Both the position numbers and the translations under genes were made by a program. Positions 46,230 through 48,932 of a DNA stretch of 64,000 nucleotides are shown here, in pieces. Source of the DNA: Cyanobacteria bacterium P01_H01_bin.74 (lineage in GTDB: Bacteria; Cyanobacteriota; Vampirovibrionia; Vampirovibrionales; Vampirovibrionaceae). Numbering within the stretch: the first letter of the stretch is position 1; every line of letters starts with the position of its first letter. Under the pieces are notes generated by a model. It worked only from the letters and a program-made list of their open reading frames with translations. It was not told the DNA's origin and made no database searches. The DNA is taken from assembly GCA_038745945.1 (NCBI GenBank), contig JBCDLA010000002.1:871-64870 (forward strand). The letters run 5' to 3'.

Positions 46230-46644
46230 AATTTTATTAAGCTGGGTCTAGTTGCCTGAGAAAAATACTCAACTGTAAACAAAGGTAAATATTTTACTAG
46301 TTCAATCTCCACTTAAATTGAATACTGTAAAAACTAATGTTACTATATAAGTAAAATAAACTTATTTAATTCTAGTTATGTTTCAATCACACGTTTTTTT
46401 GAGATAAAAAATATTTTTTTTTAATTTGCTTGGTTATTTCTTTTCAGATTATCTTTATTTGTTTTTTATTTCCTCGTAAAAACAATTTTTTATAGTTTAC
46501 ATTATAACTTTGCTAAGCAGCTAGTAAAAGCCTGCACGAAACTGCCCTTTTTTCCCGAATAAAAATGACGTTATTTTCAAATTTTAAAGAGAGCCCCAAA
46601 TTACGACTGTCTTAAAAATAATAACGCTGAGAGAGGATTAAGAT

Positions 46645-47022
46645 ATGCAACCACTAAATCATAAGGTCGGCAAATTGCCGTCTGCACTAAAATTTCGATC
46701 ACGTTATCAGCAAACAAACAAAGCAATGTCCCCCCTTTCTTCTGATTTTAAGAATAGCCAATCAAAAAGTGCTTATGAACCGTCATCAAGGAAAACTAAA
46801 AAACAGACAGACAAAAAAAATACTCGCTATGATTCAATGGTAATGCCAAACGCATTATTTTTTGGCAGCACTCATGTATCAATGAGAAATGGCCAACGGG
46901 CAGCAGGAGCCGGTTCCTATCAACGTGTTCACGGGGCTGCTTTTAGTCATAATGATTCAAAGCCAATGTCTGCCCGTGAAAATGTGTCAACACGTGATCC
47001 TGAAGAAATGGACAAAGAGTAA
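46645..47022 (+). CDS. hypothetical basic/polar protein (AT-rich island)
   Basis: 125-aa ORF. K/S/Q-rich N-terminus. No recognisable domain. Confidence 0.3.
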   Translation: MQPLNHKVGKLPSALKFRSRYQQTNKAMSPLSSDFKNSQSKSAYEPSSRKTKKQTDKKNTRYDSMVMPNALFFGSTHVSMRNGQRAAGAGSYQRVHGAAFSHNDSKPMSARENVSTRDPEEMDKE

Positions 47023-47135
47023 GCCTCATTAAATGTTGGACCAACATAATATAAGATTTAACAATTTATAAGGGGATAAACTAGAAATACAACAACAGTT
47101 TGCACTAACCTATCGCGCTATAATAGAAAGATGTT

Positions 47136-47741
47136 TTGATGCAATCACTCGGAATTCCGAAACACCTAACAAACCAAAACCGCGATCAATATTTTGGCAG
47201 AATGCATGCCCAAGCCCCGGAAGGCCAAGTTCAACCAAAGCACGTTCAAAATGAAGTAAAGTCTTTGCTGGCCCATTATCCTGGCTGTCAATGTGGTGCT
47301 CATGATGTTACCACAATGACACCAGACCGTATTTTAGAAAAAATTAAAGCTGACAGCTATGCACATATCATTGCGCATGAACAAGCCCATGCTTCTGCAG
47401 CAGGTCATTTGGGTGGAGCCATTGCACTTGAAACAGATAGCAATGGGGTTGTTGTTGCTGGCCATGTACCCATAACTATTCCTGGTTTAAGCCCAGCTAA
47501 TCCCGAAAGTAACATCGATGATTATAACACTGTTAGAGCTGCGGCATTGGCTCCGGGAGATCCATCAAGTGCAGACAAATCAATTGCTTCAACAGCAAGT
47601 GCTCTGCTTGGTATGGCCCAAGTATTAATGCAAAACAAACAAAATGCTTTAAATATAGGATTAACTGTCGATCAATACATACAAGCCGGTAAACCAAAAA
47701 CTATTCCGGATAAAGATTTAACCCCTATTGTTATTGCTTGA
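47136..47741 (+). CDS. hypothetical protein with HEQAH…GH segment (possible minimal zinc-binding motif)
   Basis: 201-aa ORF containing IIAHEQAHASAAGHLGG. It resembles, but does not exactly match, the HExxHxxGxxH metzincin pattern. Otherwise unknown. Confidence 0.3.
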   Translation: MMQSLGIPKHLTNQNRDQYFGRMHAQAPEGQVQPKHVQNEVKSLLAHYPGCQCGAHDVTTMTPDRILEKIKADSYAHIIAHEQAHASAAGHLGGAIALETDSNGVVVAGHVPITIPGLSPANPESNIDDYNTVRAAALAPGDPSSADKSIASTASALLGMAQVLMQNKQNALNIGLTVDQYIQAGKPKTIPDKDLTPIVIA

Positions 47742-47897
47742 ATAACATTTTTGTATTGTATTTTATCTTGCTATCAGCAAATTAGGAAAAATCAGACAAA
47801 GAAAATAGATTTTTTAGACTTAATAACTATCAAATAAGAGTAAACTCTTAATCGATCATGATTTAGTTGCCATTAACAATATTAGTACCTTTTGAAT

Positions 47898-48587
47898 TTA
47901 CACAAAACTATTTCTTAAGTTATTTGCACGTTCCAGGAAATTATGTACATACGTTTTAATACCTTCCGAAGATGATGTATTTTTTAATATGTTATTTGCT
48001 AGTTTATCAGGGGTAAATCCATCATGTACCAGGTTTTTTTGGCTTTTGGCCTTCTCATACCCAAGTGCTTGTCTTGAACTAGTAAGCAAATTTTTGACTT
48101 GGTCAAGTGTAAGTTCTTTTTTGGAAAGTTTTTCTGCAATTTGATTTCTTATTTTAGGGTTTAAAGCACGAGCATTTCGCGAAGAGAGATTTGGATAAGC
48201 AACTGAAGTTGCATATTTAATAAGTTGTGGGCTTAAACTGTCATTAGACTCTAATTTTTCAAGAATTCTTTGTCCTTGGGTATGGCTGAGCAAAGCTTTT
48301 AACTGATTTACTTCTGCTTTTGCTGTATTTTTGGCGGCTTTCTTTGTTTCTTTGGCTTCGGTTTCTATTTTTCTACCAGAATAGTTGTCTTCGGTAGAAG
48401 GGAGTTTTATGCCCAATGTATAGTAACTTGAAAATCTATTTTTTTTCTTTTTTGCAGCTCGTTTTGCTTTCTCCATTTCGGTGGGTTTAAAATGATGCGG
48501 TAAAAAAATTCTTGTCAAAAGACTCATTGTGATAAACTCTCCAAATTGTTCACTGAAAAATCCAGTCCTTGGCAGTATGTCCTGCAA
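47898..48587 (-). CDS. hypothetical Lys-rich helical protein (AT-rich island)
   Basis: 229-aa ORF with K/A/E-rich stretches (KAKRAAKKKKNR, KETKKAAKNTAKAEVNQLKALL). No enzymatic motif. Confidence 0.3.
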   Translation of the reverse strand: MQDILPRTGFFSEQFGEFITMSLLTRIFLPHHFKPTEMEKAKRAAKKKKNRFSSYYTLGIKLPSTEDNYSGRKIETEAKETKKAAKNTAKAEVNQLKALLSHTQGQRILEKLESNDSLSPQLIKYATSVAYPNLSSRNARALNPKIRNQIAEKLSKKELTLDQVKNLLTSSRQALGYEKAKSQKNLVHDGFTPDKLANNILKNTSSSEGIKTYVHNFLERANNLRNSFV

Positions 48588-48932
48588 GCAACTGAGGAAA
48601 CAGTATTGCCGAATTCCTAATTTAAAACCTCAAACCCTTGTTCTCTTTTATTGGCATTAAAAATAAAAAAGAAAAAAAAGTGATAGTCATCCTAAAATTT
48701 AGGATGTTATGTAAACATAATTGAACATATGGATGTGAATATCTTTTTTTGAAGAGTAATTTTTTAATACTTTCATATGTTACTCTGCTTTTTCAGCAAT
48801 TCTAAATTTAGTAAAAAAGCATTGCCCTAACTTTTACTTATTAATTAACCAAGGTAGCTTGATAAGATACACAAACTGTATTGCTTTGGATATAATTGAA
48901 AAAATAAGAACAACTCCTAAAGAGGATTTGAA

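Follow-up and report, generated by a model that had tools for sequence, protein, structure and literature searches.

Introduction

Anabaena PCC 7120 encodes a truncated single-stranded DNA-binding protein (SSB), Alr0088, of 119 amino acids (aa), alongside a typical tailed SSB, All4779, and the SsbB protein of Bacillus subtilis has 113 aa (PMC3976300). For the protein family PF12118, an assignment to the zincins has been proposed from a weak FFAS-based prediction (PMC3650047), and one of its members, CJM1_0395 of Campylobacter jejuni, was found in the supernatant only when the flagellum was intact and affects host-cell interaction (PMC5223770). Here, we analyzed a 64-kb stretch of bacterial DNA, hereafter the window, in which an ssb gene coding for a protein of only 114 aa (48933-49277, + strand) lies next to 2.7 kb of AT-rich DNA (46230-48932, hereafter the stretch) that carries three small open reading frames (ORFs), one of them for a PF12118 protein. 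The original prediction, made from the sequence alone, had described the stretch as an acquired island, either an effector cluster or a mobile-element remnant, and the SSB as resembling phage, plasmid, or competence-type SSBs. Our analysis indicates that the stretch is probably a variable spot, specific to the lineage and sparse in genes, that coincides with a synteny breakpoint, beside a native ssb block that is typical of the class.

Results

The short SSB and its orthologues

The ssb product matched the OB-fold models PF00436 (90.6 bits) and TIGR00621 (100.7 bits, for a cutoff of 53.95), as well as SSB chains of the PDB with E values down to 5e-16. Its best NCBIfam model was PRK07459, which has 121 positions, at 111.9 bits, that is, under the equivalog cutoff of 161. 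The protein ends ...GSKKDNALPTSVA (...KKDNALPTSVA), with no flexible linker and acidic tip, and the description of a 114-aa SSB devoid of the acidic C-terminal tip was therefore correct. Upstream of the gene, we noticed an AAGAGGA Shine-Dalgarno sequence and, at 48868-48896, a sigma-70-like site (TACACA-17-TATAAT) coming from a scan whose sites were no commoner than in shuffled sequence.

A genome scan revealed an SSB orthologue encoded at 62 melainabacterial loci (L011-L072). By extending each match to its stop codon, we obtained lengths of 115-142 aa in Vampirovibrionales and of 108-114 aa in Gastranaerophilales. A DDDIPF-type tip was present in none of these 62 proteins; the non-melainabacterial SSBs of the same search mostly end in ...D(D/E)IPF or a near variant, such as ...DDLPF. 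Vampirovibrionales tails consist mostly of small residues and Phe or Tyr (...EVGAAF, ...GAAF, ...PAY). Incidentally, longer linkers rich in Gly occur in the SSBs of loci L027 and L030, which end in ...NPVPF and ...PVVPF, like an ...IPF tip minus the acidic residues, and even the terminal aromatic residue is absent from the window SSB (...PTSVA) and from that of L028. As all 62 orthologues are short and tipless, the short form is a class trait and not the mark of an acquired paralogue. The identity of the window SSB was 69-83% to the Vampirovibrionales proteins, the 83% being reached with Vampirovibrio chlorellavorus, and 47-57% to those of Gastranaerophilales. As far as alignments and gene order can tell, the window ssb is thus a native core SSB gene, whose short, tail-less product reflects a trait of the class Melainabacteria.

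A possibility was that this SSB is an accessory, mobile-element or competence-type (SsbB-like) paralogue, as its 114 aa without an acidic tip recall the 113-aa SsbB of B. subtilis, and as cyanobacteria carry truncated SSBs beside a typical one. Several observations make this barely credible. Orthologues occur at all 62 melainabacterial loci, all of them short, and with the same neighbours in the listed loci; identity to the window SSB does not exceed 39.8% for phage SSBs and 41.9% for plasmid SSBs, compared with the 69-83% found for its syntenic Vampirovibrionales orthologues; and PDB chains of SsbA outscored those of SsbB against it. The proposal of a phage, plasmid, or competence-type SSB is therefore refuted. 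No second ssb was found within the 64-kb window.

Gene order around ssb

Downstream of ssb are the genes for a DUF1537-type sugar-acid kinase of 459 aa (49338-50717, +; PF07005 with PF17042) and for a PdxA-family dehydrogenase of 378 aa (50722-51858, +; PF04166). The kinase gene follows ssb in every listed locus (L011-L040), and pdxA comes next in all but L032, in which the locus is truncated. This order spans Vampirovibrionales and Gastranaerophilales, an unexplained but very stable linkage.

The upstream side is organized differently. In at least 17 Vampirovibrionales loci, ssb is preceded by dus (-) and suhB (+). Where these relatives carry dus-suhB, the window has recO (42954-43775, -; Pfam and NCBIfam), a gene for a 465-aa phosphatase of the dual-specificity/protein tyrosine (DSP/PTP) type (44152-45549, -), and the core gene tsaE, which forms the left flank (45726-46229, +; PF02367 at 103 bits, TIGR00150 at 91.5 bits for a cutoff of 60.1), followed by the stretch. 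Both dus and suhB are absent from the whole 64-kb window, and tblastn with the V. chlorellavorus proteins detected no remnant of them in the spacers (best E 0.65). Conversely, the stretch was missing at the equivalent position upstream of ssb in every related genome examined. Other loci, from more divergent lineages, also depart from the dus-suhB arrangement: a glutamyl-tRNA reductase (HemA)-like ORF, read from its translation, and a GGDEF-type protein precede ssb in L026, and proteins reading as radical-SAM enzymes do so in L030. In L024, a 2.2-kb insert (7807-9850) with a 220-aa ORF and a 368-aa alpha/beta-hydrolase-like ORF lies between suhB and ssb. The varied neighbours in L024, L026, and L030 point to the 5' edge of the ssb block as a recurrent breakpoint. 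Comparison of gene orders thus places the stretch, in all likelihood, at a synteny breakpoint, and it does not appear as a clean insertion between ancestrally adjacent genes.

Composition of the AT-rich stretch

The GC content of 46230-48932 is 0.341, against a mean of 0.442 (standard deviation [sd] 0.040) over all 2.7-kb sliding windows. This is the lowest value for any 2.7 kb of the window, the runner-up without overlap, at ~61 kb, having a GC content of 0.366. The tetranucleotide distance to the whole window is also maximal there (0.38, for a mean of 0.22 and an sd of 0.044). A/T runs are visible at 46300-46600, where the GC content over 200 bp is 0.195-0.265, and at 47700-48000 (0.255). 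The AT-rich island with A/T runs that had initially been reported at these positions is therefore real, and GC content, GC content at third codon positions (GC3), tetranucleotides, and codon usage were all deviant for the window.

Part of this deviation lies outside the genes, since intergenic DNA makes up 1,092 of the 2,703 bp (40%), as compared with ~16% in the 64-kb window. The stretch starts with 415 bp of AT-rich intergenic DNA (46230-46644, GC 0.263), the presumed promoter and leader of a 125-aa ORF (46645-47022, +). Then comes the gene for the PF12118 protein, of 200 aa (47139-47741, +), which a 156-bp spacer (47742-47897, GC 0.237) separates from a convergent gene for a 209-aa protein (47898-48527, -); 405 bp of divergent intergenic DNA (48528-48932, GC 0.291) extend from the latter to ssb. 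Overall, the four intergenic pieces have GC contents of 0.263, 0.310, 0.237, and 0.291, for a value of 0.335 in all intergenic DNA of the window. As for the genes, GC3 is 0.294, 0.264, and 0.238 in the 125-, 200-, and 209-aa ORFs, respectively, whereas the mean for window genes is 0.425 (sd 0.082). The low GC content of the stretch is thus explained by a 40% non-coding share with spacers AT-richer than average, together with the low GC3 of its three ORFs. The flanking genes are GC3-poor too (tsaE, 0.310; phosphatase, 0.339; ssb, 0.365; pdxA, 0.356). Because these include core genes, the dip at 46230-48932 looks like the trough of a regional trend and not like a sharp-edged block.

The lowest GC3 values of the window belong to the three ORFs of the stretch and to a 435-aa ORF located further downstream (53741-55048, +). 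This last ORF encodes an acidic protein (isoelectric point [pI] 4.7) and is as AT-rich as those of the stretch (GC 0.353, GC3 0.252); its product had no match in Pfam, PHROG, or PADLOC. That it is equally AT-rich suggests that low-GC orphan ORFs (ORFans) are scattered in this genome and not confined to 46230-48932.

The three ORFs of the stretch

The three ORFs are real and do not represent chance open frames. In none of 2,000 first-order Markov simulations of the region did the third-longest open stretch reach 125 codons, and the annotated frame scored best of the six for each ORF under a codon model built from the remaining window genes. The 209- and 125-aa ORFs nonetheless have the two lowest codon scores of the window (-0.05 and 0.05, respectively). 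NCBI entries exist for the three proteins under locus tags AAGI66_005xx, in a 70.9-kb contig of the metagenome-assembled genome Cyanobacteria bacterium P01_H01_bin.74. Sequence prediction found no signal peptide, transmembrane segment, or hydrophobic segment in any of them. Their early description as a basic protein of 125 aa, a protein of 201 aa with an HEQAH segment, and a Lys-rich helical protein of 229 aa on the opposite strand was accurate, with the reservation that shorter starts are likely for the last two (see below). We searched for homologues with a word index over 5.8 billion proteins and with full HMMER searches over 1.8 billion; relatives were recovered for the 200-aa protein, all in PF12118, and the two others proved to be ORFans.

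The 125-aa protein is basic, hydrophilic, and rich in Ser and Lys (pI 10.1; grand average of hydropathy -1.18), and its ORF is preceded by the Shine-Dalgarno sequence GAGAGAGGA. The word-index search returned the protein itself and nothing else among the 5.8e9 proteins, and it had no match in Pfam, NCBIfam, PHROG, or PADLOC, nor in phages or plasmids by tblastn. The 209-aa protein starts at ATG 48527 according to NCBI, with GGAGAG 9 nt upstream, and an alternative TTG at 48587 would give 229 aa. It contains 12-13% Lys, has a pI of 10, and is predicted to be all-helical. Both the word-index and the HMMER searches returned only the protein itself, and no family (Pfam, NCBIfam, PHROG, PADLOC), phage or plasmid (tblastn), or PDB match was found. 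Its AlphaFold2 (AF2) model was all helix, with a predicted local distance difference test (pLDDT) score of 50.6, too poor for a fold search. The two ORFans, both coding for basic, hydrophilic proteins, would be fast-evolving or young, and we infer for them a native rather than transferred origin.

The 200-aa protein matched PF12118 over residues 76-170 in Pfam (32.1 bits for a gathering cutoff of 27.3, E 9.5e-8). Its likely start is ATG 47139, in agreement with the NCBI record, and starting at 47136 would give 201 aa. Homologues (P0002-P0011) are 40-58% identical and mostly 187-217 aa long, and PF12118 was detected in all 11 sequences. In the alignment of these 11, H80, E81, H84, D100, D141, D146, and the D, P, and G positions of ALAPGDPS..D are invariant. 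HEQAH corresponds to residues 80-84, and the initial reading of an HEQAH…GH segment as a zinc site therefore holds for the HExxH part, which is invariant in the family, but not for the His of GH: this residue, H90, is replaced by Ser in most PF12118 homologues, which shows that it is not a conserved ligand. The AF2 model had a pLDDT of 81, yet comparison with the PDB yielded no structural neighbour, and fold searches gave generic helical matches only. No match was obtained in NCBIfam, PHROG, or PADLOC, nor in phages and plasmids by tblastn. Homologues lie next to sensor kinase/alpha-amylase genes in three clusters and next to AhpC/MgtC genes in the closest one, and, in these related metagenomic contigs, their GC3 does not stand out from that of the genes around them. 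Such stable chromosomal contexts and host-like GC3 argue for long residence in this genome group, and hence the 200-aa gene would be a vertically maintained member of PF12118.

Search for mobile-element, RNA, and origin signals

A Pfam scan of all 47 non-overlapping window ORFs of at least 110 aa identified no integrase, transposase, or recombinase. No tRNA is found next to the stretch, the sole tRNA of the window being located 38 kb away, at 8188-8263. Repeats of 14-30 nt occurred at chance level only, and the same was true of tandem repeats. None of the three ORFs gave a phage, plasmid, PHROG, or PADLOC (defence) signal. Within the window, there was thus no integrase and no meaningful flanking repeat, and the notion of a mobile-element remnant is not borne out. 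Rfam returned nothing in 46230-48932 with its gathering threshold, nor with the limit relaxed to E<=1, and promoter and terminator sites in the stretch were not in excess of those in shuffled sequence. AT-rich DNA, divergent genes, and a broad GC-skew minimum led us to consider a replication origin, an idea that we rejected given the noisy skew and the lack of clustered DnaA boxes. The window contains 20 sites matching TTATCCACA with at most one mismatch, for 16.7 expected; only one is in the stretch (48190), and it lies inside a gene.

These data bear on the most serious alternative, namely, that the stretch is a horizontally acquired islet: a donor richer in AT would have supplied all three genes, or the two ORFans at a minimum, and any mobility genes would have disappeared later. 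Such an origin would account for the lowest GC content and most deviant tetranucleotides of the window, for the lowest GC3 and codon-model scores, for the ORFans, and for the lack of the stretch at the syntenic position in relatives. Besides the missing integrase, transposase, tRNA, and flanking repeats and the missing phage, plasmid, PHROG, or PADLOC similarity, it is opposed by the fact that a donor would normally be expected to leave homologues among 5.8e9 proteins. Moreover, homologues of the 200-aa protein look resident in related contigs, non-coding spacers contribute ~40% of the dip, and a poor GC3 is also seen in the adjoining core genes. We consider this scenario unlikely, while giving it some weight. 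In the idea of an acquired, non-core island, what stood was the extreme composition, the lack of the stretch at the syntenic position in relatives, and the two ORFans; what did not was any sign of mobility or of a donor. The acquired-island reading is thus weakly supported, by composition, ORFans, and non-synteny, with the missing mobility and donor signal against it.

Assembly support

Independent Logan contigs of the same sequencing run, SRR22824304, cover 35726-46238, 46317-48440, and 48419-53988 at 100% identity. Those overlapping at 48419-48440 confirm the join between the stretch and ssb. The 78 bp located right after the tsaE stop (46239-46316) are bridged by the metagenome-assembled genome only and by no Logan contig, which leaves chimera formation or strain variation at this place as a small residual risk.

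One alternative is that the stretch results from an assembly or binning artefact, with a chimeric contig joined in AT-rich DNA just after tsaE. The Logan contigs stop at 46238 and resume at 46317, and synteny with relatives breaks in the same area, as such an artefact would predict. On the other hand, GC content and codon usage are alike on both sides, the 78-bp segment is not of low complexity, the side joining the stretch to ssb is confirmed, and strain variation would also be expected to interrupt a short-k assembly. Altogether, an artefact seems very improbable.

Source lineage and other genes of the window

The closest relatives in the genome collection had a kinase ~55% identical and a PdxA ~47% identical to those of the window, and, when metagenomes were scanned with the kinase, no relative exceeded 55% identity. 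An SSB 83% identical to that of V. chlorellavorus, combined with a kinase and a PdxA that reach ~55% and ~47% at best, indicates a deep-branching Vampirovibrionales-like lineage. Apart from the stretch, the window has the content of an ordinary chromosome, including rpsI/rplM, hemB, motAB, fliOPQR, a fliN-like gene, beta-oxidation genes, thyX, fur, and tatA. Motility genes occupy 5937-7988 and 20416-26320 and comprise motA/motB, fliR, fliQ, fliP, fliO, and genes for a 482-aa FliN-domain protein and a chemoreceptor combining protoglobin and methyl-accepting chemotaxis protein domains. The fliQ ORF has 177 aa, exceeding the 74-position Pfam model that it matched. Motility and chemoreceptor genes together indicate that the organism is flagellated and chemotactic. 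Judged from these genes and identities, it is a deep-branching, flagellated, Vampirovibrionales-like member of the Melainabacteria, to which no sequenced relative is close.

Other genes of the window deserve mention. The largest is a 1668-aa ORF (55055-60061, -) without a Pfam family at E<=1e-3. At 27235-31371 (+), a 1378-aa protein fuses a bacterial-type acyl-CoA dehydrogenase with an AMP-binding (acyl-CoA synthetase-like) enzyme, and is followed by a thiolase and then by a 917-aa hydroxyacyl-CoA dehydrogenase/enoyl-CoA hydratase, in the highest-GC part of the window. A 546-aa protein with tetratricopeptide repeats and a caspase (Peptidase_C14) domain is encoded at 3803-5443 (-). Last, the 465-aa phosphatase located between recO and tsaE has a C-terminal dual-specificity/tyrosine phosphatase domain with HCKHGIDRTG; its N-terminal half is Q/P-rich, then Gly-rich and hydrophobic, and it gave weak matches to models of polymorphic-toxin and XopH-type effector phosphatases.

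Possible export of the stretch proteins

Vampirovibrio is an epibiotic predator. This lifestyle raised the possibility that the stretch is a cluster of secreted effectors for predation or host interaction, possibly including the 465-aa phosphatase, an idea that is compatible with either a native or an acquired origin. The window encodes flagellar export genes; the three proteins are small, hydrophilic, and without a Sec signal; the adjoining phosphatase shows weak similarity to models of polymorphic toxins and of type III secretion effectors; and CJM1_0395, also of PF12118, is secreted in a flagellum-dependent manner and affects host-cell interaction (PMC5223770). Yet, no domain could be detected in two of the three proteins, the three genes are not in an operon with any secretion system, and homologues of the 200-aa gene adjoin genes for sensor kinases and glycogen metabolism rather than for secretion. 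All in all, we regard an effector cluster as doubtful, an outside chance.

The 200-aa protein itself may be described as a putative zinc-dependent hydrolase, exported without a Sec signal. By analogy, it might leave the cell through the flagellar type III exporter, since CJM1_0395 needs the flagellum, the window encodes fliOPQR, and a Sec signal is lacking. In the same line, the three Sec-signal-less proteins, perhaps together with the membrane-associated 465-aa phosphatase next to them, could be lineage-specific effectors that an uncultured, Vampirovibrio-like predator exports by its flagellar type III apparatus.

Discussion

In the interpretation that we favor, that of a lineage-specific variable spot, ssb, the DUF1537-type kinase gene, and pdxA would form a block conserved throughout the class, with the 114-aa protein as its ordinary SSB. 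Upstream of this block, the 2.7-kb stretch would comprise three small genes, each transcribed on its own, and long spacers of AT-rich regulatory DNA, the 200-aa gene coding for a resident PF12118 protein with an HExxH motif and the two others being ORFans. Two points weigh against this interpretation. First, the stretch combines the lowest GC3 with the two most atypical codon usages of the window, and a recent horizontal acquisition would give the same. Second, as the closest relatives have a kinase only ~55% identical, absence from relatives is weak evidence on the age of the genes.

The locus itself matters little, as it appears to be an unremarkable variable region next to an "odd" SSB that is normal for the class. 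Of broader interest is that the melainabacterial ssb, in every locus recovered, codes for a short protein without the canonical acidic tip, and is linked to the DUF1537 kinase-pdxA pair in the listed loci. Melainabacteria as a class may replicate and repair their DNA with a tipless SSB and no second tailed SSB. This tipless ssb extends the truncated-SSB situation of cyanobacteria and leads one to ask by what means these organisms recruit SSB partners. The short PF12118 subfamily is also worth attention, as it has an invariant HExxH and a confidently predicted fold without a solved relative, and is present in these organisms. We considered jointly two separate possibilities, that is, effectors exported through the flagellum and a class-wide tipless SSB without a second tailed one, and taken together they appear improbable.

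How does this locus compare with known systems? Like genomic islets, the stretch has a low GC content, ORFans, a high non-coding fraction, and no counterpart at that position in relatives; unlike them, it has no integrase, tRNA target, or direct repeats. The 200-aa protein resembles C. jejuni CJM1_0395 in belonging to PF12118, in having an HExxH, in its small size, in having no reported Sec route, and in coming from an organism with a flagellar export apparatus. It differs in that it falls in a short subfamily (187-217 aa) known only from metagenomic contigs, the two being likened via Pfam membership. As to the SSB, it is short and devoid of the acidic C-terminal tip, like B. subtilis SsbB and the SSBs of phages and plasmids, but the window gene shows no link to competence or to a mobile element, and has class-wide synteny and 83% identity to a chromosomal Vampirovibrio ssb. 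The cyanobacterial Alr0088/PRK07459 type is also chromosomally encoded and likewise comprises one OB fold of ~115-120 aa without a Pro/Gly linker or an acidic tip; the melainabacterial ssb departs from this type by its location within the ssb-kinase-pdxA block and by a PRK07459 score below the cutoff.

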